DNA of 64,000 bases, from the NCBI GenBank assembly GCA_030697645.1, contig JAUYPI010000015.1, forward strand, positions 15,583-79,582, given 5' to 3'. The notes below the pieces were generated by a model, which searched no databases, was not told the origin of the DNA, and was given only the letters and a program-made list of their open reading frames with translations. Every line of letters begins with the position of its first letter. Position 1 is the first letter of the stretch. The position numbers and the translations under genes were made by a program. Positions 1-62,839 of the stretch are shown here, one piece after another. The stretch is from a bacterium. Its GTDB lineage: Bacteria > Patescibacteriota > Minisyncoccia > Phycocordibacterales > VMGT01.

Positions 1-1261
1 TGTTTGAGCCGCCGGACGTCCTGGCCGTCTACGAGGACTGCGCCCTCCTCTACATCCGCGAAGCGGAGGATGAGTTTCGTGATCGTGGTTTTGCCGGCGC
101 CCGAGTGGCCGACGATGCCGACCTTTTCTCCTGCCCGAATCTTGAGAGAAAAATCGGAGAAGATTTTTTGCTTATGATACGCAAATGTCACGCGGTCGAA
201 TACGATCTCGCCCCCGGCGATATGGAATTCTTCCGGCGCGTCGGGATCGCTAATGTCCGATTTTTTTTCGAACACCTCGACAAGTTCTGATGCGTTTGAG
301 AGCGTTCTGGTGAAGCGGCTTATCGAATTTCCGAGAAACCAGAGACTGTTAAAAATTCTGCCGAAGTAGAGCTGTACGAGTACCACGGTTCCCGTCGAAA
401 GGGCGCCCGCAAGCCAGAAGCGGATTGAAAGATACATACCGACGATCTCAAGGAGCATCATGAGCGTCCCCTGTGCCGCGTACATGACGATCTCAAAATT
501 CCATGCTTGACGCCGTGCTTCTTCTTGGCGGCCGGTGTAGACCGTAAATGCGTCATACTCACGTCTGCTCGACGCGAACATTTTTATATTGAGAATGTTC
601 GTAATCACATCCGCGATGCGGCCGGTCACCTTTGAATCTTCCGCTGCCTCGGCGAGATCATACGGGCGTTGTTTTCGGATAAACAATAAAACGATCGCGA
701 TGAATGCGACGCTCCACAGAAAGAAGAAAATCGCTATTCCCGGCGATGCTTGGAAAAGCACCACCAGTACCACAACGAGAAGCAGGCCGTTCATCCAGAA
801 GTTGAAGGCGAATACTTCTTGCATGTTTTGAAATGCGTCTATATAACGGCGCGTGCTCGCGACGAGCGAGCCGACGAACGTGTTGCTGAAAAAACTATAC
901 GAATGCCGGGTGATCCGCACGAATGCGTCATTCGCAAGCGCCCGGATTATCTTGCGCTGCGATTTCCAAAGCAGGTAGTCCGCCAGGCGATAGGCGATAT
1001 TGCTTGCCACGGCGGCTATCACAACAAAAAAGAGCAGGTGAAAAAGCGTCTGCGCGATCGCTGACTTCTCCGGCTCGCTTGATATGGCGTCTATGAGTCT
1101 GCGGTAGAGGACCGGCGTGACTCCGTTCGAGATGAGCGTTCCGGTCGCATAGAAAGAGAGAGCCGAAAAAAACGACCAGCGGTATTTTTTCATCTGGAGC
1201 CAGTAGTAGTGTATGATGGTGCGAAAACGCACGCCACCTTTTTGTTTTTTAGTTTGTGCCA
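1..1261 (-). CDS. ABC transporter, fused permease/ATP-binding protein (MsbA-like); C-terminal nucleotide-binding domain runs off the window edge
   Basis: The minus-strand frame from ATG (complement of 1259..1261) to nt 1 encodes multi-TM segments followed by a Walker A motif (GHSGAGKTT) near nt 60..100. The ORF continues past the window start, so it is absent from the supplied ORF track. Confidence 0.55.
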
Positions 1262-1446
1262 TGGTGTTACGGTCGGGAGCCTAAGGCTCCTCGCCCAAAT
1301 AACTTTACGAACCTCGCGCTCACTGCGCATTCACCTGCGGCTCGTGCTCAATCACGAAATCCTCGTCGTACAACCAGTACGCCTACGGTTTCGTTCATTG
1401 CGCGCCAAGCCACATCTGAACGCACATTGAACACGAGTTCCGCAAA

Positions 1447-2052
1447 TTATTTTGGCGAGGAGCCTAAGGTCTTGAGCGCCGCCTTGATCCTCTCGCTCGT
1501 GTCTGCGGTGCTTGGCGGCATTTTTTTGAGTGCTTCCCGTGCCTCACGGGCGCTGTAGCCGAGGGTGGTGAGGGCGTCAATGACATCGCCGTAGTCCTCG
1601 CCCGCGCTATCCGCCTCGCGTGCGCTTGCGAGCGAGTCGCGGAGTTCGAGCACGATTTTTTGGGCCGTCTTTTTGCCGATGCCGGAGACCTTGGTGAGGT
1701 AGGAAGTGTCGCCGCGCGCAATCGCGCTCCGCAGGGTCTCGACCGGCGCGAGGTCGAGGATCGCAAGAGCGGATTTTGGCCCGATGCCGGAGACCGATAT
1801 GAGCCGCTCGAAGAGCGAGAGTTCGTCGCGCTCACGGAAGCCGAAGAGCTCGAGCGCGTCATCTCGCACCACAAGGTGCGTCCAGAGGGAGACCTCGCCG
1901 CGCGCGGCGCCGTGCCCTGCGCTCCCTGGTGCGGGACGGAGTGCCGCGCGCGCGTCGGCGCCCACGCGCACGCGGTAGCCGACGCCATGAACGTCGAGAA
2001 TAATGGCGTGATCCTCAACGAGGACAATCGAGCCGGTGAGTCGACCAATCAT
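1447..2052 (-). CDS. ruvA: Holliday junction DNA helicase subunit RuvA
   Basis: The 201-aa product has an N-terminal OB-like domain (MIGRLTGSIV...GVGYRV), two HhH motifs (SGIGPKSA, VSGIGKKTAQKI) and a C-terminal domain, which is the canonical RuvA layout. Confidence 0.9.
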   Translation of the reverse strand: MIGRLTGSIVLVEDHAIILDVHGVGYRVRVGADARAALRPAPGSAGHGAARGEVSLWTHLVVRDDALELFGFRERDELSLFERLISVSGIGPKSALAILDLAPVETLRSAIARGDTSYLTKVSGIGKKTAQKIVLELRDSLASAREADSAGEDYGDVIDALTTLGYSAREAREALKKMPPSTADTSERIKAALKTLGSSPK

Positions 2053-2090
2053 AGCGCCATGATAGCGCCCTTGATTTTTTTCGCAAATTT

Positions 2091-2177
2091 GTGTAGAAAG
2101 TAGAAAGTGGAGAGTAGAAAGTAGGACGACGTTCGTCGTCTACAATCTACCCTCTACCTTCCACTCTCTACTCTCTA
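2091..2177. repeat. Hairpin-array element, arm unit GTAGAAAGT / ACTCTCTAC, core GGACGACGTTCGTCGTC
   Basis: Direct copies of (a)gtagaaagt, a palindromic GC core, then inverted copies (ctctac/ctctactct). The element ends 7 nt before the rpsT ATG. Confidence 0.7.
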
Positions 2178-2183: not shown

Positions 2184-2456
2184 ATGCCTATTACCAAATC
2201 AGCCCAAAAGGCCCATCGCAGCTCGCTTCGGAAGCGAGTGTTCAACCGTCGCCGCAAAGATGCGATGCGCGTGGGGATCAAGCGCGTGCGCTTGTCTATC
2301 GTGGTGGGGAAGCGAGAGGAAGGCGCGGCGTTCATCCCCGCGGCTTACAGCGCGATTGATAAGGCGGCAAAGCGCGGCGTCATTAAGAAAAACACCGCAG
2401 CGCGGAAAAAAGCGCGACTCATGGCGGCGTTACATCGAATCGGCCCTAAAACCTAA
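2184..2456 (+). CDS. rpsT: 30S ribosomal protein S20
   Basis: The 90-aa basic protein starts MPITKSAQKAHRSSLRKRVFNRRRK and matches S20 in length and N-terminal signature. Confidence 0.85.
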   Translation: MPITKSAQKAHRSSLRKRVFNRRRKDAMRVGIKRVRLSIVVGKREEGAAFIPAAYSAIDKAAKRGVIKKNTAARKKARLMAALHRIGPKT

Positions 2457-2530
2457 CCCCTAAAACCTAGAGCCTAACGCCAGAAGGTAAAGGTGTCGGT
2501 GACGAAATAACGAATGCACGAGAGAGCAAA

Positions 2531-2568
2531 CATCAAAACAGCGCGGTATAGACCGCGCTGTTTTGATG
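2531..2568. terminator. Intrinsic terminator hairpin (bidirectional candidate) between rpsT and the tRNA pair
   Basis: Perfect inverted repeat caaaacagcgcggt-ata-gaccgcgctgttttg followed by a T-rich tract. Confidence 0.55.
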
Positions 2569-2575
2569 TTTGTCG

Positions 2576-4588: not shown

Positions 4589-5320
4589 CTAGTGCGCGAA
4601 CGCAACGCATATGACACGACGCACTCCAGCGGCGCGGAGCGCGCGGCGGGCTTCAGCGAGTGTGGCGCCGGTGGTGGTGACGTCGTCGAGGACGATCACA
4701 TCGCGGCCGCGGACCGAGGCAGCAGAACGCACAGCAAAACTGCCGACGACATTTCGGAGTCGCTCGGCGCGGTCTCTGAGCGTGGTTTGCGGTTTTGTGT
4801 CGCGAATTTTGTACAGCGTGTGTGGCGTGTGCGTACACATTTCGCCGAGGAGCGAGGCAGTACGCGAGGCGAGAAGTGCGAGGGGGTCGCCACGCTCCCT
4901 TGCGCGCCTCGGTGAGGCGGGGATTGAGACGATGAGCGGTTGCGAGAGCGCGCCGAAGAGCGCGCGCTCCGCGATCTCCTCGGCGAGCACAGCGGCAAGG
5001 CACTCCGCAGCGAGCGCGATCGCCCTCGGCGAGGTGCGGTACTTCATTTCCCAGACGAGTCGCCGTACGAGCGGATCGCGGTACGCGAAGAGCGCTTCAA
5101 TATCAGCGCCGATCTTCTCTGCGCGCGGAGAGAGCTTCAAGAGTGCTTCGGCTGTGAGAGATCGGAGAGATCGACTTGCCGCTCTCGGCGGGGCGAGCAC
5201 GTCGAGTGTGTGCTCGGCGAGGGCATGAAGAACAGCCACAGCGCGTTGGACTTTTCCCCACAGAGGCGCGTTTTTCTTTTGCCGCGTTTTTGCAGCGGAT
5301 GGTATACTAGATGGTATCAC
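4589..5320 (-). CDS. comF: ComF-family protein (phosphoribosyltransferase domain)
   Basis: C-terminal PRTase motif VIVLDDVTTTGATL with a basic N-terminal region. It sits next to the pilus cluster, as comF often does. Confidence 0.7.
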   Translation of the reverse strand: MIPSSIPSAAKTRQKKNAPLWGKVQRAVAVLHALAEHTLDVLAPPRAASRSLRSLTAEALLKLSPRAEKIGADIEALFAYRDPLVRRLVWEMKYRTSPRAIALAAECLAAVLAEEIAERALFGALSQPLIVSIPASPRRARERGDPLALLASRTASLLGEMCTHTPHTLYKIRDTKPQTTLRDRAERLRNVVGSFAVRSAASVRGRDVIVLDDVTTTGATLAEARRALRAAGVRRVICVAFAH

Positions 5321-5410
5321 GGCAGCTCGAGCGGGGAGCGAGCAGAGGACAGACGGCGCACCCGCGGTACCTTATTATACTCCGCGGGGAGGGCATAAAC
5401 CCGAAACACC

Positions 5411-6616: not shown

Positions 6617-6733
6617 CTCAAAAATTTTCAATTATCAATTTTATAATTTTTAATCAATTTTCAATTACTCAATTTTCAAACACGACGTCGTCCGTTATTG
6701 AAAATTGAAAATTGTAAATTGAAAATTATCACC
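6617..6733. repeat. Hairpin-array element (arm AATTTTCAAT / ATTGAAAATT, core CAAACACGACGTCGTCCGTT)
   Basis: Fills the whole pilM-pilN intergenic region and ends 3 nt before the ATG at 6734. The core contains the palindrome ACGACGTCGT. Confidence 0.8.
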
Positions 6734-7354
6734 ATGGACACTCGCTTCAAAACCACATTTATGTCGAAGCAGCCGATCATGGCGGCGTCGCAAAAGAGAC
6801 ATCGAACGCTCGGCCCGAGCGCCGATCTCCTCGGCATTGTCGTTTCCGGCATATTCGTCCTCGCGTTTCTCTTTGCTGCTGGCACGTTTCTCTACGAGCG
6901 TTTGTCGATCCGCCGCGTCGTCGTGCTGGAAAAAACACTCGCGGAGGCACGCGAGGCATTCGAACCTGCGGTGATCGAGGAGCTCAAGCGCGACGACGCG
7001 CGAATGAAGGCGGCCGAGGTGCTCGTTGCAGGTCACCGGGCAGCGACGCCGCTTTTTCGAGTTCTTGAGGACGAGACTCTTCGAAGTGTGCAGTACAGCT
7101 CGTTTGCCTATACGGTAGAGGGCGGGCCTGGGGGGAAACTCAAGCTCGATGGTAGAGCGCGAGGATTCCGTTCTGTTGCGCTCCAGGCAGATACCTTCGG
7201 TAGTCAGCCAGACCTGATCAATCCGGTATTTTCGAACCTCGATCAGGATGTGAAAACAGGGTTCGCGACGTTTGATTTCGAAGCACAAATCGGGAAGAGG
7301 CTTATGGATTATGGAGCGATGATTGAGAGTGAGGAGGGCGCTGGAAGGCAGTGA
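6734..7354 (+). CDS. pilN: PilN-like pilus assembly protein
   Basis: Short cytoplasmic N-terminus, a single TM (LLGIVVSGIFVLAFLFAAGTFL), then a coiled-coil periplasmic region. Positioned after pilM. Start taken at ATG 6734; the ORF track starts at 6698. Confidence 0.5.
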   Translation: MDTRFKTTFMSKQPIMAASQKRHRTLGPSADLLGIVVSGIFVLAFLFAAGTFLYERLSIRRVVVLEKTLAEAREAFEPAVIEELKRDDARMKAAEVLVAGHRAATPLFRVLEDETLRSVQYSSFAYTVEGGPGGKLKLDGRARGFRSVALQADTFGSQPDLINPVFSNLDQDVKTGFATFDFEAQIGKRLMDYGAMIESEEGAGRQ

Positions 7355-7399
7355 CCGTTTCTTATGAAAGTGCATGTTTTGTAGAATGGCTCGAACTGC

Positions 7400-7514
7400 C
7401 TCAATTATCAATGTTCAATTTTAAATTTTCAATCAATTTTCAATTACCAAATTTTCAAACACGACGTCGTCCGTTATTGAAAATTGAAAATTGTAAATTG
7501 AAAATTAATAATCC
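7400..7514. repeat. Hairpin-array element (same arm and core as 6617..6733)
   Basis: caattatcaatgttcaattttaaattttcaatcaattttcaattacc - caaacacgacgtcgtccgtt - attgaaaattgaaaattgtaaattgaaaatt. Ends 7 nt before the pilO ATG. Confidence 0.8.
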
Positions 7515-8136: not shown

Positions 8137-8328
8137 ATGAAAATTTTCAATTTTCAATTTTGCAATTTTCAATCAATTTCCAAGTACTCAATTTTCAAAC
8201 ACGACGCCGTTCGTCATTAAGTCATTGCAGCATTGAAAATTTATTGAAAATTGTAAATTGAAAATTATGAACACCGGCGCTTGGTTTGACATTTGAGTTT
8301 GCTCCAATTTCGGATTTTAATTTGTTGT
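8137..8328. repeat. Hairpin-array element (AATTTTCAAT family)
   Basis: aattttcaattttcaattttgcaattttcaatcaatttccaag... core caaacacgacgccgttcgtcatt ... attgaaaatttattgaaaattgtaaattgaaaatt. Ends at the ATG of the next gene. Confidence 0.75.
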
Positions 8329-8739: not shown

Positions 8740-8927
8740 AGCGAAAAGCGAAAAACAACAGCACAAAATTTCAAGCTCCAACCAACAAGCTCCAAACAAA
8801 TTCCAATGATTCAAATCTCAATCTCGAAACACGCCGGTTTGAGATTTGAGATTTGGAATTTGAGGTTTATTTGGAAGTTGTTTTTTGGAATTTGGAAATT
8901 CGTTTTCTTTGCGCTTTTCATTTCTGT
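8740..8927. repeat. Composite hairpin-array element (outer arms GCAAAGCGAAAA, inner arms ATTTCCAA / TTGGAAAT, core GAAACACGCCGGTTTGAG)
   Basis: Nested inverted repeats: acgcaaagcgaaaagcgaaaaacaacagcacaaaat...ttccaa... core ...ttggaatttgag...ggaaattcgttttctttgcgc. Ends at the pilB ATG (8928). Confidence 0.75.
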
Positions 8928-10731: not shown

Positions 10732-11121
10732 ATGAGCGAAAATGAAAAACAAAAAAAGCAACTCCTGCTTATTGATGACGATGAGTTTCTCATTGATATG
10801 TACTCCACGAAGTTTACGGGGGCAGGGTTCGCTGTTATGGCGATGCGGAGCGTAGATGAGGCCCTCGGGAAGCTGCGTGAAGGGTACACACCTGCCATTA
10901 TCCTTCTTGATCTTGTCATGCCCACGGTTGGCGGCATTGCATTTTTGAAAGCGAGGCGAGATGAGCGCCTTGCGCCTGATGCGGTCGTCATTGTGCTCTC
11001 AAATCAGAGTGATGAGGCGCGCATCGAGGAGGCGAAGAAGCTTGGGGCGAAGGGATATATTTTGAAAGCGAACACCGTACCGTCGGAGGTATTAGAGCAG
11101 GTGCAGGCGCTTGCGGGTTAA
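10732..11121 (+). CDS. Single-domain response regulator (CheY/PilH-like receiver)
   Basis: 129 aa with receiver-domain acidic pocket residues (LLIDDDE...LLDLVMP) and a conserved K near the C-terminus. Sits between pilB and pilT. Confidence 0.7.
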   Translation: MSENEKQKKQLLLIDDDEFLIDMYSTKFTGAGFAVMAMRSVDEALGKLREGYTPAIILLDLVMPTVGGIAFLKARRDERLAPDAVVIVLSNQSDEARIEEAKKLGAKGYILKANTVPSEVLEQVQALAG

Positions 11122-11232
11122 TTTTCAATGCTCAATTTTCAATCAATTTACAATGGTCCAATTTTCAAACACGACGTCGTTCATCTATTGAAACATTGAA
11201 AATTGAAAATTAGAAATTGAAAATTTTCGTCT
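11122..11232. repeat. Hairpin-array element (AATTTTCAAT family)
   Basis: ttaattttcaatgctcaattttcaatcaatttacaatggtcc - aattttcaaacacgacgtcgttcatct - attgaaacattgaaaattgaaaattagaaattgaaaatt. Ends 9 nt before the pilT ATG. Confidence 0.8.
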
Positions 11233-12359: not shown

Positions 12360-12531
12360 GCACGAGAAATTTTCAATTTCCAATTTTCAATTTCCAATCA
12401 ATTTTTAATTACTCAATTTTCAAACACGTCGTCGCCATTGAGTCATTGAAGCATTGAAAATTTATTGAAAATTGCTCATTGAAAATTGAAAATTAAAAAT
12501 GTCTGCCTTTGGTTTCCCCCTTTAGCATTTC
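12360..12531. repeat. Hairpin-array element (AATTTTCAAT family)
   Basis: gaaattttcaatttccaattttcaatttccaatcaatttttaattactcaattttcaaacacgtcgtcgccattgagtc ... attgaaaatttattgaaaattgctcattgaaaattgaaaatt. Confidence 0.75.
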
Positions 12532-13773: not shown

Positions 13774-13900
13774 AAGTCAATTTCCAATTTCCAAATTTTC
13801 AAATCTCAAACACGGAAAACGTTCGGGTTTGGAAATTGGAGCTTTGAGATTTGGAGATTGTTTGGAAATTGTAAATTTGGAACTTGGAAATTCGAGTCTT
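13774..13900. repeat. Hairpin-array element (arm ATTTCCAA / TTGGAAAT, core CAAACACGGAAAACGTTCGGGTTTGG)
   Basis: caatttccaatttccaaattttcaaatctcaaacacg...cgggtttggaaattggagctttgagatttggagattgtttggaaattgtaaatttggaacttggaaatt. Ends 6 nt before the secF ATG at 13901. Confidence 0.75.
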
Positions 13901-20803: not shown

Positions 20804-20851
20804 GATAAGGCATGCAAGTCATACGGGCCGCACCTCATTGCATTCGGTGCG

Positions 20852-20990
20852 GAATTTTCAATTTTCAATTTTACAATTTTCAAATAATTTCCAATGATTA
20901 AATTTCCAATTTCCAAACACGACGTCGTCGGCGTTTGAAAATTGACCCATTGAAAATTTATTGAAAATTGAAAATTGATAATTGAAAATT
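20852..20990. repeat. Hairpin-array element (AATTTTCAAT family) inserted in the 16S V1 helix
   Basis: Same arm unit and core (caaacacgacgtcgtcggcgtt) as the pil intergenic copies. Flanked by hairpins ccgcacctcattgcattcggtgcgg and gccgcaccgagtgtggcgaggtgcggc. Confidence 0.8.
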
Positions 20991-21190
20991 CCGCCGCACC
21001 GAGTGTGGCGAGGTGCGGCTAGTGGCGAACGAGGCAGTAATACGCAGGAACGTACCCTGGAGACGGGCATAACCAGCCGAAAGGTTGGCTAATTCCCGAT
21101 GGTCCGAGCACATATTTTTGGAGAAAAACAAAAGGCGCATCCTGTACCTGTATAGATACTTTGGATGCGCCCTGCAACATTGAGCGGTTT

Positions 21191-21310: not shown

Positions 21311-22157
21311 GACGACCTCCTTTTTCGCTGAAGAAAGAAAAGCATAGGGGTCTATATATTGTCAAGTATCTTACTTGGCTTCCAAAAATATGTGCTCGGT
21401 AAAGGAGCAATCTGCTCCGGGAGCGGCCTGCGGGCTATCAGCTAGTTGGTGGGGTAACGGCCTACCAAGGCTCTGACGGCTAGGGGGGGTGAGAGCCCGA
21501 TCCCCGCCGATGACACTGCGACACGGGTCATACACCTACGGGTGGCAGCAGCCGAGAATATTCGACAATGGGCGAAAGCCTGATCGAGCGACGCCGCGTG
21601 GTGGATGAAGCACTTCGGTGCGTAAACACCTTTTATGAGGGAAGAAGTTCGCCGCACCTCATTGCATTCGGTGCGGACATTTCGATATATCGAAATTTCG
21701 AAATATCGAAATGTCCGCCGCACCGAGTGCAGCGAGGTGCGGCGGATTGACGGTACCTCATGAATAAGGGGCTCCTAATCACGTGCCAGCAGGAGCGGTA
21801 ATACGTGAGCCCCAAGCGTTATCCGGAATCACTGGGCGTAAAGGGTGTGTAGGCGGCCGCGTTAGTCCTCCGTTAAATCCCACGGCTCAACCGTGGAGCT
21901 GCGGAGGATACGGCGCGGCTTGAGGGCGCGAGAGGTGTGCGGAACTCACGGTGTAGGGGTGAAATCCGTTGATATCGTGGGGAACACCAAAAGCGAAGGC
22001 AGCACACTGGCGCGCCCCTGACGCTGAAACACGAAAGCGTGGGTAGCGAAGCAGATTAGATACCTGCGTAGTCCACGCCCTAAACTCTGTCCGCTAGCTT
22101 TTCGGAGTATCGACCCTCTGGGAGGCGAAGCTAACGCGTTAAGCGGACCGCCTGGGA

Positions 22158-22189: not shown

Positions 22190-22722
22190 AGACGGGGACC
22201 AGCACAAGCGGTGGATCATGTGGTTCAATTCGATGGTAAACGAAGAACCTCACCAGGGCTTGAAATCCAGATGAACTCGCCTCGAAAGGGGTGCGGCCTT
22301 CACAAGAGGCATCTGGACAGGTGCTGCATGGTTGTCGTCAGTTCGTGGCTTAAGTTGTTCCCTTTAGTGGGGTAACGAACGCAACCCCCGTCGCCTGTTA
22401 TACGTGTCAGGCGAGACTGCCCAGCCCAAAGTGCGGCTCACTTCGGTTCGCCGCAGAATCAAGAAGTATGAAGTATGAAGTATGGAAATGTACGAAGAAA
22501 AACCATAATTCATGATTCATAATTCTTGCTTCTGCATCGAGCGGAGCGAGATGCATTTCGGGCTGGGAGGAAGGCGGGGATGACGCCAAATCAGCATGGC
22601 CCTCTGACGCCCTGGGCTACACACGTGATACAATGGCCGGTACAACGGGTCGCGACGGGGTAACCCTGAGCCAATCCTTATAAAGCCGGCCTCAGTTCGG
22701 ATTGAGGTCTGCAACTCGACCT

Positions 22723-22757: not shown

Positions 22758-23610
22758 TATACTGCGGTGAATACGTTCTCTGGTCTTGTACTCACCGCCC
22801 GTCATGCTAAGGGAGCCGGGAATACCCGAAACCCCGCCCTTTGCTCGCGGAGCAAAGGGCGGGATATATCGAAATTTTGAAATATCGATATGTCCCGCCC
22901 TTTGTTCACTTCGTGAACAAAGGGCGGGGTTACGGTAAGCTCGGTGACAGGAGCAAAGTCGTTGAGACATACTGTCTTGTTGCGACCTATGTGAGCGATC
23001 ACATAGTAAAACCCAACTGATATCGGTGAACCCCAGCGTACACAATTCACAATTTCTAATTTCAATTTTGAATTAGTCATTGAGAATTCGTAGTTGCGCC
23101 AGCTGGGCAATACCGAGGGAAGCCCACTAGGAGCTAGTTTTTTAACTGGTAACTAGTTGCGGCCCCGTAGAGACTTCCTGCACTTTTCTAGAAGTAGAAG
23201 GCGCAGGGGATGGCGTTGAAAAATTCACGCTATAAAACGTTGGCCCCAGCCGTAAAGTTTCCTAAAGAAACATTACGGCTGGGTGAAGATATAGTCCGTG
23301 CCTCAATGTAAATTGAGGGTAACACATGAACAAGGCACCGGTAGCGGAAGCTGTTGGTGGAATCATTCCTAGATCCCGTCCCAAGGCGCGTAAAGCGCGC
23401 CATGTTTAAATATTTAAATGTTTAAACATGGCCAAAATTCGCTTTGCGAATTTTGGCGAGGACTGATCAGGTCGGTCCGAGGGTGGAAGTTTTTCTTCCA
23501 TTCCTCGGAATCATGCTGTGGCTGTCAGCTAAACCAGCTAGCGGAGTTAGATGCAAATTTAGCTTCCAACCGTGGACGGAACAAAAGAGGGAACAAAAAA
23601 CACTCAAAAA

Positions 23611-27860: not shown

Positions 27861-27985
27861 GTAAAAGTGGACATCTAAAAGTGGACATCGGATGTCCACC
27901 AAATGTCCACCAATTTATTCAAAGCGTAAAAAATCCGGGCAACCACGGCTGTGGTTGCCCGGATTCTCCTTGCCCGCGATCGTTT

Positions 27986-30974: not shown

Positions 30975-31191
30975 GCCAAGCGGAAAACGCAAAACGAAAA
31001 ACAACAGTGCAAAGCGCAAAAAATTTCCAATTTCCAAAAAACAATTTCCAAACGAATCTCAAATCTCAAGTTCCAAATCACAAACGTTCGTGTTTGGAAC
31101 TTGAACTTTGAATCATTGGAATTTGTTTGGAGCTTGTTTTTTGGAGCTTGAAATTTTATTCTGTTGTTTTGCGCTTTTCGTTTTGCGCTGC
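30975..31191. repeat. Composite hairpin-array element (outer GCAAAACGAAAA / inner ATTTCCAA, core CAAACGTTCGTGTTTGG)
   Basis: Same nested architecture as 8740..8927 and 54286..54520. Ends at the ATG (31194) of the next gene. Confidence 0.75.
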
Positions 31192-33594: not shown

Positions 33595-33760
33595 ATTCGC
33601 CCCGAAAGCCCAAAACACAAATTACAAAACCCAAACAAAACACAAACGCACAAAATCAAAACTCGCGACGCGGAGGTTTATGCTTTTGTGTTTTGAATAC
33701 TGTGCTTTGTTTGGGTTTTGTGTCTTTGTGCTTTGTGCGTTTTATAGCTTAGGTCTTGTG
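33595..33760. repeat. Hairpin-array element (arm ACAAAA(C) / (G)TTTTGT variant)
   Basis: Direct arm copies caaaacacaaattacaaaacccaaacaaaacacaaacgcacaaaatcaaaa, core ctcgcgacgcggag, then inverted ttttgtgttttgaatactgtgctttgtttgggttttgtgtctttgtgctttgtg. Confidence 0.7.
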
Positions 33761-39679: not shown

Positions 39680-40018
39680 ATGGAATTTGCGGTGATACAA
39701 ACAGGGGGCAAGCAGTATCCGGTCGCTGTGGGCGAGAGGATCACGATTGAGAAGCTGCCCGGCGAGCTCAAGGAGGGCGACAATGTCACCTTCGACTCCG
39801 TGCTTCTTGTTGAGGACGGTTCCGACACTACGATCGGCACGCCGTTTATCGAAGGGGCGGCGGTGCACGGCACGATCGAGAAAATCGGCCGCGCCAAGAA
39901 GGTTGACGTGGTGAAGTACAAGGCAAAGAGCCGCTACTTTAAGCGCCGCGGCCACCGGCAGCCGTATATGGAGGTGAGGATTACGTCGCTTGATGGGAAA
40001 GTGGAAAGTGGAGGGTAG
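39680..40018 (+). CDS. rplU: 50S ribosomal protein L21
   Basis: MEFAVIQTGGKQYPVAVGERI matches the L21 N-terminus (M.AVI.TGGKQY.V). The ORF track extends it upstream to 39566. Confidence 0.85.
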   Translation: MEFAVIQTGGKQYPVAVGERITIEKLPGELKEGDNVTFDSVLLVEDGSDTTIGTPFIEGAAVHGTIEKIGRAKKVDVVKYKAKSRYFKRRGHRQPYMEVRITSLDGKVESGG

Positions 40019-40961: not shown

Positions 40962-41816
40962 ATGAAAAACCAAGAAAAGTCATCCCCTCTCGAATCCCTA
41001 ACCATTAACTTCCGACCCGGACACCTCCACCCACTCACGCAGGTGATGGAGCGGATCGCGGCTGTCTTTACTGCACTTGGGTTCGCGATTGCAGACGGGC
41101 CGGAGATCGAAACTGAGTATTACAATTTCGACGCGCTCAATATCCCCGCCGATCATCCGGCGCGTGATATGCAGGACACTTTTTGGCTCGCGGAGCCGAA
41201 AAGTGAATTTCCAATTTCCAAAAACCAATTTCCAAATACGACGAACGTCGAGCGCGCGGATGCCGGGGCAACGTCACAGAAACTTTTGCTCCGCACGCAC
41301 ATAAGCTCACTTCAGGTGCGTTATATGGAGGCACATGGACCGCCGTTTCGGATGATATCGAGTGGGCGGGTGTATCGGCACGAGGCGACAGATGCGACGC
41401 ATGAGGCCCAATACCACTACACGGAGGGGCTTGCCGTGGAGCAAAGCGCCTCGCTGGCGCAGTTGAAGTACGTGCTGGACGCATTTGCAAAAAGCATTTT
41501 CGGCGAGAGTATGAAGAGTCGTTTTCGCCCTGCGTACTTTCCGTTTGTCGAGCCGGGGGTTGAAGTGGACCTCTCGTGCGTCGCGTGTGGCGGCGTTGGT
41601 GGGGCGTGCAGCGTGTGCAAGGGCACCGGCTGGGTGGAGGTGCTTGGCGCTGGCATGGTGCACCCGCAGGTGCTCACGAACGGCGGCATTGACCCCGCGC
41701 TCTGGCGCGGTTATGCATTCGGCGTTGGCGTTGATCGCATCGCCATGCTTCTCTACGGGATTCCGGATATACGATTGTTTTATAACGGCGACCTGCGCGT
41801 GGTGAATCAGTTTTGA
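40962..41816 (+). CDS. pheS: Phenylalanine-tRNA ligase alpha subunit, short form
   Basis: Class II motifs (FRMISSGRVYRHEATDATHEAQYHYTEGL, FPFVEPGVEVD, GAGMVHPQVL). Carries an in-frame insertion at 41199..41250. Confidence 0.85.
   Translation: MKNQEKSSPLESLTINFRPGHLHPLTQVMERIAAVFTALGFAIADGPEIETEYYNFDALNIPADHPARDMQDTFWLAEPKSEFPISKNQFPNTTNVERADAGATSQKLLLRTHISSLQVRYMEAHGPPFRMISSGRVYRHEATDATHEAQYHYTEGLAVEQSASLAQLKYVLDAFAKSIFGESMKSRFRPAYFPFVEPGVEVDLSCVACGGVGGACSVCKGTGWVEVLGAGMVHPQVLTNGGIDPALWRGYAFGVGVDRIAMLLYGIPDIRLFYNGDLRVVNQF
41199..41250. repeat. Half hairpin-array (ATTTCCAA units plus core remnant) inserted in-frame in pheS
   Basis: gtgaatttccaatttccaaaaaccaatttccaaatacgacgaacgtcgag encodes SEFPISKNQFPNTTNVE. 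Confidence 0.7.
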
Positions 41817-41850
41817 TGAGAAAGCCAAGTAGAGAGTAGAAAGTAGAAAC

Positions 41851-43962: not shown

Positions 43963-44225
43963 GGACATTTGACCATTGACATTTGACCTCGAACCCGCCG
44001 TCGTAGTATCAAAGGTCAAATGTTACATGTCAAATGTCATCGTAATCACTCACACCCGTCATTGCGAGCGGAGCGAAGCAATCCAGTTGTTGAGGCATAA
44101 TTCTGGATTGCCTCGTCGCTCCACTCCGTTCCGCTCCTCGCAATGACGGCTCTGTTACGCAAGATCGTGGTGAGTGTGAGCGGTTACTGTCTGTCAAATG
44201 TCAAAGGTCAATTGTTACCTGTTAC
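43963..44225. repeat. Long nested imperfect palindrome (about 260 nt)
   Basis: Outer arms acatttgaccattgacatttgacc / ggtcaaatgttacatgtcaaatgtc ... tgtcaaatgtcaaaggtcaattg. Inner arms cactcacacccgtcattgcgagcggagcgaagcaatccag / ctggattgcctcgtcgctccactccgttccgctcctcgcaatgacgg...ggtgagtgtgag. Confidence 0.7.
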
Positions 44226-50380: not shown

Positions 50381-50953
50381 ATGTTCATCGTCGGTATTAC
50401 CGGAACGCTCGGCGCGGGGAAGGGCACGGTGGTTGATTACCTCGTGCGGGAGAAGGGGTTCGTCCACGCATCTGTTTCTGAATTTCTTGCGGTGGAGACA
50501 AAGCGTCGCGGCATCGAGCCGGACAGGATTGCCCGACACAACCTCGCAAACGAATATCGAGCACAAGGGCCGACGGTGCTCATGGAGGCCGTGTATCAAT
50601 CGGTTCCTCAGGGAGTCGAGAGGGTCGTACTCGAGCCGCAACACACCGTCTCCGAGGTGCGGTTTATGCAGAGCCGAGGAGGCGTGGTGTTCGCAGTTGA
50701 TGCGGACCTCGAGACTCGCTATAACCGCATACGAGAGCGTGGGAGTCTTAAAGATAACGTATCATTTGATGAGTTTGCTGCGATTCAGAAGCTCGAAATG
50801 GCTTCGGATGATCCGAACAAGAACAATCTTGGCGCGGCTATCGAGGCAGCTGATTTTCATGTTACAAACGACGGGACGCTGGAGGAGCTCTATACGCAGA
50901 TCGAGCAGGTACTGGCAAAAATTCATTTCTCCAAACACGACGTGCGTGTTTGA
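50381..50953 (+). CDS. P-loop nucleotide or nucleoside kinase (dephospho-CoA kinase / dNK-like)
   Basis: Walker A GITGTLGAGKGTV and a size (190 aa) typical of small NMP/dNMP kinases. Exact specificity is not determinable from sequence. Confidence 0.4.
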   Translation: MFIVGITGTLGAGKGTVVDYLVREKGFVHASVSEFLAVETKRRGIEPDRIARHNLANEYRAQGPTVLMEAVYQSVPQGVERVVLEPQHTVSEVRFMQSRGGVVFAVDADLETRYNRIRERGSLKDNVSFDEFAAIQKLEMASDDPNKNNLGAAIEAADFHVTNDGTLEELYTQIEQVLAKIHFSKHDVRV

Positions 50954-51010
50954 GGTTTGATGCATTGGAATTTGAAATTTGTTTGGAAATTGTTGGTTGG
51001 AAATTGGAGC
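50954..51010. repeat. Half hairpin-array (TTGGAAAT units) after the kinase gene
   Basis: gtttgaggtttgatgcattggaatttgaaatttgtttggaaattgttggttggaaattggag. The core gacgtgcgtgtttgagg overlaps the CDS end. Confidence 0.6.
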
Positions 51011-51795: not shown

Positions 51796-51917
51796 AAACG
51801 TCAACGTCCAAAAAAGCCTGCAAAGTCAAAAGTCAAAACGCAAAAGTCAAAGCCACAGCCTAAAAGTCAAAAGTTTTAAGGTTTTGAGTTGTGGTTTTGA
51901 CTTTTGATTTTTGAGCT
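51796..51917. repeat. Hairpin-array element (arm AAAGTCAAA / TTTGACTTT variant)
   Basis: ctgcaaagtcaaaagtcaaaacgcaaaagtcaaagcc ... gttttgagttgtggttttgacttttgatttttgagctttgacttt. Ends at the map ATG (51918). Confidence 0.7.
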
Positions 51918-52697
51918 TTGACTTTCATGTCTCTCATCAAAACTCCAGAGGAAATCGCCCTCATGCGCGCTGCTGGTAAGCGGCTTGCATTCGTGTTGCA
52001 CGAGGTCACTACTGCAGCGCTGCCGGGGGTTTCCGCGCGCGAGCTCGACTCCTCTGCGGAGCGTCTGATCCGCGCAGGCGGCGATCGGCCTGCATTTCTC
52101 GACTATACACCCGGCGGTGCGCGACGGCCGTACCCGGCGACGCTTTGTGTTTCCGTGAACGACGAAGTCGTGCACGGCATTCCGAACGAGCGCGAGAAAA
52201 TACTCCGCGAGGGCGACATCGTCGGTTTCGATCTCGGGCTTGAACACGGGGGATTTTTCGCCGACATGGCGGTGACGATCGGCGTCGGCGGGATTGACGA
52301 GCCGGGCCGACGGCTCATCGAGGCGACGCGTGGCGCGCTTGATGCGGGGATCGCCGTAGCGCGCGCAGGCAGCCACATTGGCGACATAGGTTTCGCTGTC
52401 GCGCGGTTCGTGCGTAAAGGTGGTTTTGGCCTCGTGACGGAGCTCGGTGGACACTCGATCGGCCGCTCTCTCCACGAACTCCCGTTCGTGCCAAACAGTG
52501 CGACGCGCGGCTCAGGCGCTCTACTTGCGAGCGGCATGACGATCTGTATTGAGCCGATGCTCTGTGAGGGAAGTGGCGCAGTACGGCTTGATTCGGACGG
52601 CTACACCTTCCGTACCCGAGACGGCCGCCGCAGCGCGCACTTTGAGCACACGATATTGATCACTGATGGAGGGGCGGAGATACTCACAGCGCCGTGA
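51918..52697 (+). CDS. map: Methionine aminopeptidase type I
   Basis: MSLIKTPEEIALMRAAGK start and metal-ligand blocks (VVHGIPN, DIVGFD, GHSIGRSLHE, FTIEP, HFEHT). Confidence 0.85.
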   Translation: MTFMSLIKTPEEIALMRAAGKRLAFVLHEVTTAALPGVSARELDSSAERLIRAGGDRPAFLDYTPGGARRPYPATLCVSVNDEVVHGIPNEREKILREGDIVGFDLGLEHGGFFADMAVTIGVGGIDEPGRRLIEATRGALDAGIAVARAGSHIGDIGFAVARFVRKGGFGLVTELGGHSIGRSLHELPFVPNSATRGSGALLASGMTICIEPMLCEGSGAVRLDSDGYTFRTRDGRRSAHFEHTILITDGGAEILTAP

Positions 52698-52715: not shown

Positions 52716-52857
52716 GATGCGATGCGCTTAATTTTCAATTTTCAATTCCAATGAATTTTCAATGTTTCAATGATGCAATGACGGACGACGTCGTGTTTGA
52801 AAATTGGGTAATTGAAAATTGATTGAAAATTGAGCATTGAAAATTTTTCCTTGAGTC
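52716..52857. repeat. Hairpin-array element (AATTTTCAAT family, core in reverse orientation)
   Basis: ttaattttcaattttcaattccaatgaattttcaatg...gcaatgacggacgacgtcgtgtttg...aaaattgggtaattgaaaattgattgaaaattgagcattgaaaatt. Confidence 0.75.
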
Positions 52858-54285: not shown

Positions 54286-54520
54286 AACTGAGTGCAAAAT
54301 GTAAAGTGCAAAGCGCAAAACAACAGTACAAAATTCCAAGCTCCAACCAACAATTTCCAAACAAATTTCAAATTCCAATGCATCAAATCTCAAACACGCA
54401 CGTCGTGTTTGGAAATTGGATTTTGAGTATTGTGATTTATTTGGAGCTTGTTTTTTGGAATTTGGAAATTCGTTTTGCTCATTGCGCTGTTGTTTTTCGC
54501 TTTGCGAGTGCGAGCGGAAC
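54286..54520. repeat. Composite hairpin-array element (outer CAAAGCGAAAAACAACAG, inner ATTTCCAA, core CAAACACGCACGTCGTGTTTGG)
   Basis: Same three-layer nesting as 8740..8927 and 30975..31191. Confidence 0.75.
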
Positions 54521-59393: not shown

Positions 59394-59435
59394 GACGAGA
59401 GCGTCGCGGTGGAGTTATCCACACCACTTAAATTT

Positions 59436-59760
59436 TCAAATTATCAATTTTCAATTTCCAATCAATTTTCCAATGACACAATTTTCAAACACGACGTCGT
59501 TCGTCATTGAAATATTAGACCTCTCCAGAAAGTCATTTCTACTGCAATTTTTGGTTTTCGGCTGCGACTTCGTCAGACGTCGCAAAATGATTCTCGCCGT
59601 ACATCCAGTACGCCGTCGAATCATTTTGCTCGTCTTCCTCGTCTCGCTCGAAAACCAAAAATTTCGTCGCGAAATGACTTTTTGGAGAGGTCTATTGAAA
59701 ATTCATTGAAAATTGATAATTGGAAATTGAAAATTATGAGTCCGTTTTGGTGATTATGAT
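59436..59760. repeat. Hairpin-array element (AATTTTCAAT family) carrying a 190-nt internal palindromic cargo
   Basis: Arms and core caaacacgacgtcgttcgtcattgaaat, then a nested palindrome gacctctccagaaagtcatttc...ttttggttttcg...cgaaaaccaaaaa...gaaatgacttttggagaggtc, then attgaaaattcattgaaaattgataattggaaattgaaaatt. Confidence 0.75.
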
Positions 59761-59811: not shown

Positions 59812-62679
59812 ATGGATCTTTCTCCCAACCGGACTCTCGAGCGGCGTTCTGAGAGGCATGAGGACGAGCTCTCGGAGCTTCGAGTGCGTCTTGCCCAGGC
59901 TGAGCTCGCGGCTGAGCGCGCGCGCGGGGAGCGGCTGTCTCACGAGACCCGGGAGCGCCTCGCGAGCGAGGAACTTACAAGACACCGCGAGGAGCAAGAG
60001 GCGCACGGCGCGGCGAGCCCGGCCGAGACGGCGGCGATCGTGCTTGACCTCGCGCCGGAGAGTCATGATAGTCAGGTCGGGCTCCTCCTTGGCGTCGCAC
60101 GAGATCAGAGTGTCGGCGTGGCGCTTTCCGCCGCGCACAAGCTCGGCAATCCCCACATCGAGGACGATTTTCACCGCGCGCTCGTCGAGTATATCCGCGA
60201 GGGCTATCCCGCCGAGGGAGTGCGCGAGCGGGATCGGCTTTGGAAAGTGCTCCACATGACGCTCTACGAGATTCTCTTGCCGGAATTGCCGCAGGGAGGC
60301 GAGGCGCGCGAGCGCGGTCTCAAAGGGGTGCTCTCTTCGATGGAGCAGTTTTACTCCGGGATGCGCTCGCTTGCCGAGGGAGCGCGGGGAGGGGACATAT
60401 ACGCGCTCGAACTTGCGCTCCCAAACGTCGGGGACGAGGTGAGCTTCTACGTCGCGGTGCCGAGCGCGCGGCGCGACCTCTTTGAAAAGCAGCTGCTTGC
60501 CGTCTTCCCGCGCGCCGAGATCATTCCGCAGCACAACGACTACAACATTTTCAATGAGCGCGGAGCGCATGCGGCGGTGGTCGCGGCGTTTGGTGCGCGG
60601 CCGGCCTTGCCGCTCCGGCTTTACGAGAGCTTCGACTATGATCCTCTCAATGTCATCGCGAATGCGTTTTCAAAAATAGAACGCGCGGGCGAGGGCGCGG
60701 CGCTTCAGTTCCTGGTTCGCCCCTCGGGCGGCGAGCGCTACCAGCGGCACTTTCGCACCATACTGAAGAACGTGCGTGAAGGGATGCTGCTCGCGGAAGC
60801 GCTCGAAACCCCGGAGAGCATACTTGGCGAGTTCGCGGCGAGCGTGCGGGATTTTGTTTTCCAGCGAAAAAAATCGAAACGCGAGGAAGAAGACAGAAAA
60901 CAAAAACCGCCGAGCGTAGACCAGGCAGGAGTGGAACTCCTCGAGCGCAAGGTGGCGACTCCTCTCGTCGAGGCCGCAATCCGCATCGTCGCGTCGGCTG
61001 GAGACGAGCCCCGGGCCCGGGCGATCCTCGACGAACTTGTCGCCGCGTTCCACCAGTTTGAGGACCCGCAGGGGAACCGCCTGCGCTTCTCTCGTCTCTC
61101 GCGCGGCGCGCTCTCTGCCGGCCTTCGCTCCTTCAGTTTTCGCGAGACCGGCGCCGCACCTCTGCTCCCGCTCTCGCTCCGCGAGCTCACTACGCTCTTT
61201 CATTTCCCGGTCGCAGGAGAGCTCGCGACGCCGCAGGTGAGGTTCTCACGCGCTCGAGCCGGCGCGGCGCCCGCGCTCGCCTCGTTTAGAGATACATCCC
61301 GAGCGGTGAGCGCCCCTGCCGCGGCAAGCTCCGCTTATAGCGATCGCGTCGTACGCGACGCGACTTCGGGTGCGACGAGCGCAGCTCGGCAGAGCGAGGG
61401 GGTGGCGCTCGGCGTGAACCGCTTTCGTGGCGCCGAGACTCGCGTCTCGATCGCGCCGGAGGACCGGTTGCGGCATCTCTATGTGATCGGCCAGACCGGG
61501 ACGGGCAAGTCGACGCTCCTGCGGAACATGATCGTCGAGGACATCGCCGCGGGCGAAGGCGTGTGCATGATAGATCCGCACGGCTCGGATGTCGCGGAAG
61601 TGCTTGCGGCCGTGCCGCGCGAGCGCTACGGTGACGTGATTTACTTTGACCCGGGCTATAGCGCGCGTCCGATGGCGCTCAATATGCTCGAGTATGACTC
61701 GAGGCACCCGGAGCAAAAAACGTTCGTCGTGAACGAGCTCCTCGGCATTTTCCGCAAGCTCTTCGGCGCAGTCCCCGAGTCGATGGGGCCAGCGTTCGAG
61801 CAGTACTTCCGCAACAGTGCGCTTCTCGTGATGGAGGATCCCGCCTCCGGCAACACCCTCGTTGATGTCGCGCGCGTCTTATCCGACAAGCGTTTTCGCG
61901 AGCGGAAACTCGCGCAGAACCGCAACCCCCTCATCGCGCAGTTCTGGGAGAATGCCGAGCGCACGACCGGCGAGCAGGCGCTCGCGAACTTCGCGCAGTA
62001 CGTGACCAACAAGTTCGACGTCTTCCTCTCGAATGACGTCATGCGTCCGATCATCGCGCAGCAGCATTCGGCGTTTTCGTTCCGCGACGTGATGGACGGG
62101 CGGAAAGTGCTGCTCGTCAATCTCGCTAAGGGGCGGCTCGGGGATATCAACGCGCACCTCATCGGGCTTGTTCTCGTGGGGAAAATCTTGATGGCTGCGC
62201 TCTCGCGGGTTGACACCCCCGGGCTCGCGCTCCCGCCGTTTTACCTCTATCTTGACGAGTTTCAAAACATTACGACCGACTCGATTGCGGTGATCCTCTC
62301 CGAGGCGCGCAAGTACGGCCTCGGACTCACGATCGCGCACCAGTTTATCGGCCAGCTCTCGGAGAACATCCGCGACGCGGTCTTCGGCAATGTCGGTTCA
62401 CTCGTCGCGTTCCGCGTCGGCGCGGACGACGCCGAGGTGCTCGAGAAGCAGTTCGCGCCGGACTTCCGGGCGCACGACCTGATGAATATCGAAAACCGAA
62501 ACGCGTACGTGCGCCTGCTCTCGCACGGCCGTCCGACGAAGCCTTTCACGATTGAGACTGAGCCGCCGGAGAGCGGCGAGCCACTACAGGTTGAAGACTT
62601 GAAGCTCCGGTCTTATACCCGCTACGGCCGTCCGCGGGAGGAAGTGGAGAACGAAATCTTAGAGCGATATCGAGCGTAA
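59812..62679 (+). CDS. VirD4/TraG/TraD-like coupling-protein-type ATPase with a ~450-aa N-terminal domain of unknown function
   Basis: Walker A YVIGQTGTGKSTLLRNM, Walker B FYLYLDEFQN, then SEARKYGLGLTIAHQFIGQL...GNVGSLVAFRVGADDAE, which matches the T4SS coupling-protein C-terminal region (ARKYG...QS.SQL). No N-terminal TM segments. The family assignment is from memory, not a search. Confidence 0.55.
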   Translation: MDLSPNRTLERRSERHEDELSELRVRLAQAELAAERARGERLSHETRERLASEELTRHREEQEAHGAASPAETAAIVLDLAPESHDSQVGLLLGVARDQSVGVALSAAHKLGNPHIEDDFHRALVEYIREGYPAEGVRERDRLWKVLHMTLYEILLPELPQGGEARERGLKGVLSSMEQFYSGMRSLAEGARGGDIYALELALPNVGDEVSFYVAVPSARRDLFEKQLLAVFPRAEIIPQHNDYNIFNERGAHAAVVAAFGARPALPLRLYESFDYDPLNVIANAFSKIERAGEGAALQFLVRPSGGERYQRHFRTILKNVREGMLLAEALETPESILGEFAASVRDFVFQRKKSKREEEDRKQKPPSVDQAGVELLERKVATPLVEAAIRIVASAGDEPRARAILDELVAAFHQFEDPQGNRLRFSRLSRGALSAGLRSFSFRETGAAPLLPLSLRELTTLFHFPVAGELATPQVRFSRARAGAAPALASFRDTSRAVSAPAAASSAYSDRVVRDATSGATSAARQSEGVALGVNRFRGAETRVSIAPEDRLRHLYVIGQTGTGKSTLLRNMIVEDIAAGEGVCMIDPHGSDVAEVLAAVPRERYGDVIYFDPGYSARPMALNMLEYDSRHPEQKTFVVNELLGIFRKLFGAVPESMGPAFEQYFRNSALLVMEDPASGNTLVDVARVLSDKRFRERKLAQNRNPLIAQFWENAERTTGEQALANFAQYVTNKFDVFLSNDVMRPIIAQQHSAFSFRDVMDGRKVLLVNLAKGRLGDINAHLIGLVLVGKILMAALSRVDTPGLALPPFYLYLDEFQNITTDSIAVILSEARKYGLGLTIAHQFIGQLSENIRDAVFGNVGSLVAFRVGADDAEVLEKQFAPDFRAHDLMNIENRNAYVRLLSHGRPTKPFTIETEPPESGEPLQVEDLKLRSYTRYGRPREEVENEILERYRA

Positions 62680-62682
62680 GAG

Positions 62683-62839
62683 CCTGTCCACTATCTTGCT
62701 TTCGAGATGAAATTTTCTGATTTTGAGCGAGACGAAGTCAAAAATTGCGAGGAATATCGAGATATTTCGAGAAATTTTTGACAAGTCGCAGCCAAAATCA
62801 GGAAATTTCAGGCCGGAATGAAGATAGTGGATAGGCTCT
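62683..62839. mobile_element. MITE-like element with 18-bp perfect terminal inverted repeats
   Basis: gagcctgtccactatctt ... aagatagtggataggctc flanking about 120 nt of AT-rich non-coding sequence with internal repeats (aaatttttgac / gtcaaaaattg). Confidence 0.55.

Follow-up and report, generated by a model that had tools for sequence, protein, structure and literature searches.

The Correia (NEMIS) elements of Neisseria, which resemble miniature inverted-repeat transposable elements (MITEs) of 100-155 bp, are palindromic spacer repeats without an open reading frame (ORF) that lie near start codons, have TA ends, carry outward promoter-like boxes and give hairpin transcripts cut by RNase III. 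The Rickettsia palindromic elements (RPE, ~100-150 bp) occupy the spacers, the RNA genes and, in frame, the coding genes of a reduced genome. Heptamer tandem repeats are known as the STRR of cyanobacteria, and the eukaryotic Foldback (FB) transposons have long inverted arms made of short tandem sub-repeats, the number of which varies between copies. Here, we analysed a 64,000-nucleotide stretch of bacterial DNA (contig JAUYPI010000015.1, hereafter the window), in which a hairpin at 2093-2171, between the divergent genes ruvA (-) and rpsT (+), had been read as one of at least seven arm variants around a single conserved core. We found that F1, F2, F4, F5/F6 and F7, as we call the repeat families of the window, are non-autonomous dispersed repeats, and that the 2093 element is a singleton of the same architecture, seemingly built in place.

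The repeats of the window resemble the Correia elements as short, ORF-less palindromes in spacers near start codons, with TA ends and outward promoter-like boxes. The likeness is functional only: the sequences are unrelated, the conserved part is a 26-bp terminal repeat in Neisseria and the apex, with 7-nt tandem arms, here, and the elements here also occur in ribosomal RNA (rRNA) and in a coding gene. With RPE they share the palindromic form, the reduced genome and the in-frame protein insertion, seen here in pheS; however, RPE belong to another phylum and lack both heptamer arms and a common apex motif, and the pheS insert is only a fragment of an element. The FB transposons have similar copy-variable arms of tandem sub-repeats, but are kilobase-scale and eukaryotic, with a transposition machinery that is different or unknown. 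The STRR, and the TAACTGA heptamer repeats of Beggiatoaceae, cyanobacteria and Bacteroidetes (PMC4679880), likewise consist of 7-nt tandem units in non-coding DNA, often a few nucleotides before start codons, with variable copy number and patchy distribution; whereas those repeat one or a few fixed units in direct arrays, many units are found here, in inverted pairs around a palindromic apex. The REP, BIME and REPIN repeats (PMC3116915) are extragenic palindromes in mosaic combinations, believed to depend for their movement on a single-copy enzyme acting in trans (RAYT). REPs, however, measure 20-40 nt and REPINs are doublets, whereas the elements here are 70-200 nt long with tandem-repeat arms, and no ORF of the window matches Y1_Tnp, the domain of RAYT. 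Short ORF-less insertions in the rRNA genes of the candidate phyla radiation (CPR) are uncharacterised and have been suggested to be RNase III-type intervening sequences (IVS) (PMC11270868). IVS are long self-paired replacements of helix-tip loops that occur sporadically and are believed to spread horizontally and to be excised by RNase III; here five lie in one 16S gene, and they are built from modules (F1, F5, F6, heptamer arms) of spacer repeats. In none of the compared systems do a conserved apex, inverted heptamer arms, nesting and insertions into both rRNA and coding genes occur together, and no description of such elements in CPR was found in the literature searched.

Pfam and Rfam scans, by which its genes were mapped, assign the window to the chromosome of an ultra-small bacterium of the Patescibacteria (CPR), and homologues of PilT and RuvA carry the labels Parcubacteria, Paceibacterota or Patescibacteria. 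Its GC content is 55%. For comparison, further loci or contigs were fetched (cited below by L numbers), which together with the window make 420 kb. One of them, L049, from a separate NCBI assembly (GCA_034376905.1), is 100% identical to window 1-1954 and comes from the same genome, with zero polymorphism, which excludes an artefact of assembly.

The window contains 30 hairpins with a score of at least 13, compared with 0, 0 and 0 in three shuffles. About 21 of the 30 are long (70-200 nt), AT-rich and without T tract. The elements lie in gene spacers, at five 16S rRNA helix tips and in one protein-coding gene (Table 1). The arm unit, which had been given as 6-11 nt, measures 7 nt with few exceptions: among 89 non-redundant tandem arrays, period 7 is seen in 32 and period 14 in another 8, while shuffles yield 0-2 period-7 arrays and non-CPR control loci 9 of 89. 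More than 20 different heptamer units occur, mainly as inverted pairs around the apex.

F1 (eight copies in the window) and F2 (six) are multi-copy, dispersed and free of ORFs, as are MITE-like elements. A search with the F1 apex pattern returned full elements on 17 metagenome contigs and a Patescibacteria genome contig, at GC 32-47%. There the elements stand, in both orientations, beside housekeeping genes that are unrelated (nusB/rnc, pth/der, parA/parB, recG, map, eno and others). Because of these neighbours, we rejected the idea of a pil-regulon operator, for which five of the eight F1 copies in the window, flanking pil genes, had spoken. No match to the F1 apex was obtained in viral contigs (0), therefore no phage vector is seen. 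Empty sites exist in relatives: L040 (PilT 84% identical) lacks both F1 copies that flank pilT and has spacers of 8 nt (regulator-pilT) and 15 nt (pilT-pilC) in their place, and L048 lacks the 2093 hairpin. In L041/L042 (PilT 90% identical), different hairpins occupy the two spacers flanking pilT. These two contigs are short (1351 and 1344 nt) and end inside or just after a hairpin, which suggests that such repeats may break metagenome assemblies. The elements are also nested in one another, F4 inside F1 (59431-59735) and F1 inside F5 (16S gene). The sequence-only reading had favoured a protein-recognised core, or a hotspot that generates arm repeats in situ, over a transposed fixed sequence. 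For F1, F2, F4 and F7 this is wrong, since they are fixed sequences, arms included, that lie at unrelated sites elsewhere, have empty sites in relatives, are nested and have entered the 16S and pheS genes; in-situ growth is supported for the 2093 element, whose arm appears to come from local sequence.

The 16S gene (20758-23009) measures 2252 nt against the 1533 positions of the small-subunit (SSU) model. Insertions of 174, 275, 90, 137 and 79 nt follow model positions ~82, ~188, ~455, ~1157 and ~1436, respectively, and all five are self-paired and replace the loop at a helix tip, as IVS do. Three of them are built from F1, F5 and F6 modules and a fourth has GAAGTAT heptamer arms. The 16S insertions of the window are the same kind of element as its spacer repeats, a link between CPR rRNA insertions and genome-wide spacer repeats of which we found no description in the literature searched. 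Near the 3' end, Rfam places a group I intron (22954-23318); the true 16S 3' exon probably follows it, because the last ~40 model positions align poorly. Apart from rRNA, two tRNAs and this intron, no Rfam family was found in the window, and none matches the hairpins.

In the coding sequence of pheS, an F2 fragment is inserted in frame. PheS has 28 extra residues in comparison with solved structures; they fall within AEPKSEFPISKNQFPNTTNVERADAGATSQ and are bordered by the conserved motifs DTFW and LLRTH (window 41190-41280), and part of this stretch is encoded by the 31-nt repeat fragment.

All the loci on which the claim of one core with seven arm variants was based exist, and so do differences in arm-unit copy number between copies (F1 arms are 28-67 nt long, ~4-9 heptamers). 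The 21-nt consensus core AAACACGACGNCGTCGTGTTT, however, does not recur: at up to 3 mismatches it has a single match, at 20915, and that one has 3 mismatches. The half-core CAAACACGACG occurs seven times and its complement twice, all nine within F1 or F2 elements, and it is truly common only to F1 (AATTTTC arms) and F2 (ATTTCCAA). Three listed variants are without it, their apexes being GGACATCGGATGTCC (27862-27913), CTCGCGACGCGGAG (33605-33734) and AAAAGTTTTAAGG (51822-51925), and the 2093 hairpin shares with F1/F2 only ACGACG..CGTCGT. The supposed half-copies at 39996-40012 and 41827-41849 turned out to be solo heptamer arrays with neither core nor partner arm. A heptamer, AAGAATC/ATGAATC, is repeated five times at 35740-35774, within the coding region of mnmA (35348-36448), and the 170 nt at the window end (63822-63991, including a hairpin at 63822-63899) consist nearly entirely of CATGAAT/TTCATGA/CATACTT heptamers. 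CGACG or CGTCG is found at the apex in 13 of the 21 long hairpins, in 6 of ~10 families, against 11% of random 30-nt windows. The CG-rich apex is thus above chance, yet it is not one conserved core.

What holds of the claim, for the F1/F2 superfamily, is the conserved apex with fast-changing arms. The perfect palindrome AAACACGACGTCGTGTTT is the F1 apex in the AT-rich relatives L039, L013 and L031; therefore, the consensus of the sequence-only reading is the ancestral form of the F1 family. The metagenome copy L018 has the exact apex ATTTTCAAACACGACGACGT with CTAAAYTC arms, and L039 (7045-7158) has CAAACGCGACGACG with other arms. F1, F2 and L018 share a CAATGA junction ~15 nt upstream of the apex, which reads CAATGT in the L039 variant. 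All four have the apex in common and form a single superfamily of diverged subfamilies. Another apex, CGTACAnCCAGTACGCC, unrelated to this one, is found in two unrelated arm sets (1280-1469 and 59516-59694). The reverse pattern is also present: F5 arms enclose F1 at 20827-21019 and the ATATCGAAAT palindrome at 21650-21744, and the latter is found in other arms at 22826-22935. The elements are, then, modular and layered. No core alone, without arms, was found in the 420 kb, and the core as an independently mobile mini-palindrome was rejected on this ground.

The 2093-2171 hairpin is imperfect, with 31 Watson-Crick pairs, 1 G.T, 4 A.C and 2 other oppositions (hairpin finder). As plus-strand DNA it folds at -17.1 kcal/mol (z -3.1 versus shuffles), and as minus-strand RNA it forms an almost continuous helix of -52.1 kcal/mol (z -9.3), its G.U-compatible mismatches leaning to the minus strand by 4 to 1. 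The promoter-like site at 2059-2086 lies between the hairpin and ruvA; if used, it would give a ruvA message that does not include the hairpin. Should the conserved TTGATT/TAGAAA pair serve as the rpsT promoter, most of the hairpin would lie in a new rpsT leader of ~78 nt. A terminator scan flags the 6-bp apex alone, on the minus strand, with a weak tail, so that the site does not qualify as an intrinsic terminator. In the 420 kb the element has no second copy at any site and, as a singleton, lacks the multi-copy character of a MITE-like element.

The ruvA-rpsT spacer was compared with that of four relatives (L044, L046, L047 and L048), and it has been remodelled differently in each lineage. 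The pair CCCTTGATTTTTTTCG..(17-nt spacing)..TAGAAA is common to the window, L044, L046 and L048, while L047 retains the TTGATT box without TAGAAA. In L048 the TAGAAA box stands 8 nt before the rpsT ATG as one unit, with no hairpin. In L044/L046 (RuvA 86% identical) the box is followed by the heptamer array TTAGAAA GTAGAGG GTGGAAA GCGAAAA GCAGGAG GACGGTC, which is ~77% identical, ungapped, to the left arm and left apex half of the window (own count) and terminates in a small hairpin without long right arm; the position homologous to the apex at 2125-2140 reads GGAGGACGGTCATCCTC in L044. The pyrimidine right arm (30-36 nt) is present only in the window and absent from all relatives examined. Because the left arm starts in the conserved -10-like box and is colinear with the L044/L046 array, its unit seems to derive from local sequence. 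The array may have grown from one unit to about five, with the palindrome completed, or in L044 truncated, in place. The right arm would have been added either as an inverted copy, made when the polymerase switched template at a small hairpin already in place, or by a separate expansion of heptamers. In L047, the ruvA-rpsT spacer contains a small HicB-like ORF (by reading of its translation) and (CCAGTCT)n heptamers (420-670).

Beyond this spacer, -10-like hexamers stand 5-8 nt ahead of several start codons (window 2059-2086 on the minus strand, L048 395-490, L040 spacers). As these lie so close to the start codons and no Shine-Dalgarno sequence is visible, they suggest that this lineage has many leaderless mRNAs.

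The explanation towards which we lean, with some reserve, is that the elements are non-autonomous foldback or MITE-like palindromes subject to 7-nt slippage and moved by a trans-acting enzyme, and that they are probably neutral or selfish. The non-coding space of the CPR genome is colonised by modular foldback palindromes, each with a short, often CG-rich apex and inverted 7-nt arrays, inserted at gene boundaries, within one another, at 16S helix tips and in frame in pheS. After insertion, the arms would gain or lose units by 7-nt slippage. The enzyme would be encoded outside the window, and the apex with the CAATGA junction is its likeliest putative recognition site, because these remain constant while the arms change. 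Occasionally, inverted copying beside a small hairpin might create a palindrome on the spot or lengthen an existing one. The elements would be tolerated owing to their self-folding, which spares the flanking RNA, and would persist where such an insert is harmless, i.e. in spacers, in a surface loop of PheS and at the tips of rRNA helices. RNase III probably cleaves the long double-stranded RNA that they form, as it does with rRNA intervening sequences, and any host function, such as that of the outward promoter-like hexamers in F1 arms, would be secondary.

Several observations weigh against this explanation. The window holds no transposase, RAYT, HNH or recombinase gene in Pfam scans; an HNH protein or a recombinase had been named as examples of a protein that might correlate with the element. 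None of the fetched loci showed an autonomous partner, and the flanking genes read there are housekeeping genes. A classical MITE has conserved termini, whereas here the apex is conserved. F1 ends read (TA)ATTTTCAAT, with TA at 10 of 21 left and 8 of 21 right ends (background 3-10%), but TA is self-complementary and may belong to the element itself. For F4, the flanks are ATT or TA at three sites only. Such ends are compatible with short target-site duplications, but ambiguous. The 7-nt period is left without explanation. For the 2093 element, the alternative is that L044 lost its right arm. Finally, the different hairpins gained independently at the same two spacers in two relatives may mean that they are useful.

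Whether F1 copies are maintained as structures was approached through their arms. RNAalifold on 19 F1 copies gave a 3-bp apex stem only, the yield being poor because the repeat arms align ambiguously, and it was replaced by a comparison of own arms with those of other copies. The own arms of a copy are no more complementary than the arms of different copies (permutation p 0.78), and the lengths of left and right arms are uncorrelated (r -0.36). Over all hairpins, G.U-compatible mismatches have no strand bias (40 versus 38, own tally), although the hairpin at 1280-1469 leans to the minus strand by 8 to 1. RNA-level selection on pairing was rejected, as the G.U versus A.C counts give no overall bias for the transcribed strand. 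Taken together, the F1 copies therefore behave as drifting copies of a master sequence and not as individually maintained structures.

These data bear on the alternative that survives best, which we nevertheless hold to be unlikely, namely that the host selects the elements as expression modules at the boundaries of genes: they would act in RNase III processing or in mRNA stability and so uncouple operon genes, with F1 as a portable outward leaderless promoter. Many elements do stop 0-9 nt short of a start codon, no Shine-Dalgarno sequence being visible, and in ~7 of 12 F1 copies (by reading of flanks) 5-9 nt separate the terminal GAAAAT from the start codon. The array (TTGAAAA)n reads TTGAAA-17 nt-GAAAAT in every register, outward at both F1 ends, and 8 of the 13 promoter-like matches in 5300-14000 fall in F1 arms, shuffles giving 4.7 ± 2.1 matches. 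The -10-like boxes 6-8 nt before the ATG of ruvA here and of rpsT in L048 are as expected for leaderless mRNAs, and both the hairpins gained in the same spacers by two relatives and the almost continuous helix of the 2093 minus-strand RNA fit a host role. However, the promoter matches are consensus matches only, and the AGCTTTT, GACATTT and GTAGAAA arms of other families lack such hexamers. In the close relative L040 the pil genes are the same, but their spacers measure 8-15 nt and contain no hairpin. Copies are found in either orientation, in rRNA and within a protein-coding gene, and F1 has neither co-variation of its own arms nor a G.U bias for the transcribed strand.

The history of the ruvA-rpsT spacer, with one unit in L048, about five in L044/L046 and the right arm in the window only, argues for dedicated de novo building of palindromes at many sites, in which a CG-rich palindrome would nucleate a hairpin and a slipping or template-switching polymerase would add 7-nt units and an inverted copy of the flank. 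This is the hotspot idea of the sequence-only reading, extended to the whole genome. The pilT-pilC spacer is a parallel: it reads TGACGAGTTTTTGCTTT in L040 and TGACGAG(CTTTTAG CTTTGAG CTGTTAG CTTTTAG)AGGGACGACGG in L042, i.e. four CTTTTAG-type units after TGACGAG and then a GGGACGACGG apex. The common period of 7 among many unrelated units and the enrichment of CGACG/CGTCG at apexes point the same way. We still consider this account improbable as a general one, since the arms of F1, F2, F4 and F7 are the same at many unrelated sites and in different genomes and hence travel with the element; moreover, no solo core without arms and, in the window, no candidate enzyme was found.

That the elements are intrinsic terminators or chance low-complexity palindromes is very improbable: they do lie between genes, and clear short GC-rich hairpins with T runs are present in the window (2527-2572, 14861-14902, 23605-23634 and 40032-40073), but the long elements span 70-200 nt, are rich in AT and have no T tract, an F1 copy follows a canonical terminator in L019 and L032, the 2093 element lies between divergent genes, and shuffles give no hairpins while other genomes contain the same sequences. 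Systems of the TIGR-Tas or CRISPR-like kind are common in Patescibacteria, and TIGR stem-loop arrays with palindromic edges have been described in CPR and phages (PMC12045711). Guide-RNA arrays of such a system were rejected and have next to no credence, as the elements are single and scattered, the window has no Nop-domain (Tas) or Cas gene, and no box C/D-like motif pair was seen on reading the sequences, no formal scan being made.

Table 1 Hairpins, repeat arrays, promoter-like sites and reference genes of the window
Feature	Position	Strand	Context and remarks
2093 hairpin, left arm	2093..2124		GTAGAAA heptamer x4.6, first unit overlapping -10-like box TAGAAA (Tandem Repeats Finder, hairpin finder)
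2093 hairpin, apex palindrome GACGACG-TT-CGTCGTC	2125..2140		CG-rich; unique in 420 kb (sequence)
2093 hairpin, right arm	2141..2177		pyrimidine heptamers, TCTACCC-like x4.6 at 2146-2177; imperfect complement of left arm (Tandem Repeats Finder, hairpin finder)
Promoter-like TTGATT-17 nt-TAGAAA	2071..2099	+	ahead of rpsT; read by eye in alignment and sequences, not called by scan tool
Promoter-like TTGCGA-16-TATCAT	2059..2086	-	ends 6 nt before ruvA ATG
F1, AATTTTC arms, apex CAAACACGACGTCGTCCGTT	6623..6727	+	between pilM and next gene
F1	7401..7512	+	upstream of pilO
F1	8142..8266	+	downstream of pilO
F1	11120..11225	+	between response-regulator gene and pilT
F1	12368..12500	+	between pilT and pilC
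F1 nested in F5	20853-20990 within 20827..21019	+	16S rRNA gene
F1, apex in reverse orientation	52730..52845	-	
F1 split in right arm by F4 (59516-59694)	59431..59735	+	
F2, GCAAAGCGAAAA outer arms, ATTTCCAA/AAATCTCA inner arms, apex GAAACACGCCGG	8743..8919	+	upstream of pilB
F2, short copy	13778..13892	+	between pilC and secF
F2	30988..31187	-	inverted relative to 8743 (alignment score 213 vs 93)
F2	54309..54492	+	
F2 half copy (apex and one arm)	50930..51010	-	76/79 identical to reverse complement of 54309 copy; abuts ORF end
F2 arm fragment and ACGACGAACGTCG	41206..41250	+	in frame in pheS; 30/31 identical to 31022-31052
F4, apex CGTACATCCAGTACGCC	59516..59694		~80% identical over full length (179 nt) to L046 2570-2748 and to L041 element upstream of pilT
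190-nt hairpin	1280..1469		only F4 apex (25 nt) in common with F4; unrelated arms; identical in L049
F5 outer arms (GCCGCACCTCATTGCATTCGGTGCGG) with nested F1	20827..21019	+	16S helix tip after model position ~82
F5 outer arms, ATATCGAAAT palindrome (F6) apex	21650..21744	+	16S, after model position ~455
Hairpin with GAAGTAT / CATAATT heptamer arms	22426..22562	+	16S, after model position ~1157
F6-type apex in different arms	22826..22935	+	16S, after model position ~1436
F7, apex GAATATCGAGATATTTC	62679..62839		homologous over full length to L043 3955-4085 (~78% identical); middle layer common to L046 F4
CAAAACA heptamer arms, apex CTCGCGACGCGGAG	33605..33734		
AAAGTCA heptamer arms, no CG core	51822..51925		similar hairpin in L013 5636-5734
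Short hairpin, two 14-nt units, apex GGACATCGGATGTCC, no CG core	27862..27913		
GACATTT heptamer arms	43964..44038		
Solo purine heptamer array GGAAAGT	39996..40012	+	no partner arm
Solo heptamer array AAGTAGA x3.3	41827..41849	+	ends 1 nt before pheT ATG
ruvA	1447-2052	-	Pfam
rpsT	2184-2456	+	Pfam
Type IV pilus cluster pilM/O/B/T/C	5411-13773		Pfam; secF nearby

Among the short GC-rich hairpins, those at 14861-14902 and 40032-40073 are related, near-perfect and 42 nt long (TTGCAATAAC..GCGATCGC/GCGACCGC..GTTATTGCAA), and are probably terminators or operator sites. The octamer GCGATCGC at the apex of the former equals the cyanobacterial HIP1 repeat in sequence. Other genes mapped in the window are gyrB with an intein, pheS/pheT, two sigma-70 genes and the 16S rRNA gene. 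The gyrB intein (45108-48575) was recognised by a Pfam Intein_splicing match at residues 485-908, which splits the Toprim region. The window also encodes an indoleamine 2,3-dioxygenase family protein (16787-17962, minus strand, E 2e-53) and a Translin-family protein (32970-33590, plus strand, E 9e-9), two families better known from eukaryotes, and ORFs without Pfam match at 54613-58233 and 52858-54285 (1206 and 475 aa).

CPR genomes are tiny, yet scarce non-coding space is spent here on about 25 long palindromes. The ruvA-rpsT spacer offers a clean natural series, from one unit through an array to the full hairpin, beside a promoter. A bolder idea, to which we give little but some weight, is an active palindrome-building process in Patescibacteria, in which a short CG-rich hairpin nucleus would recruit slippage or template switching, 7-nt repeats and inverted copies would be laid down at gene boundaries and rRNA tips, and the products would spread as bidirectional leaderless promoters and RNase III sites. 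If true, this process would also explain the short rRNA insertions of CPR and perhaps the heptamer repeats of other phyla. The modules shared with genome-wide spacer repeats give at least some of the short ORF-less CPR rRNA insertions a concrete identity, and the longer 16S gene affects primers and taxonomic profiling. Finally, the superfamily with heptamer arms and a CAAACACGACG apex is common to Patescibacteria contigs of GC 32-56% and provides a handle for finding the enzyme that would move it.

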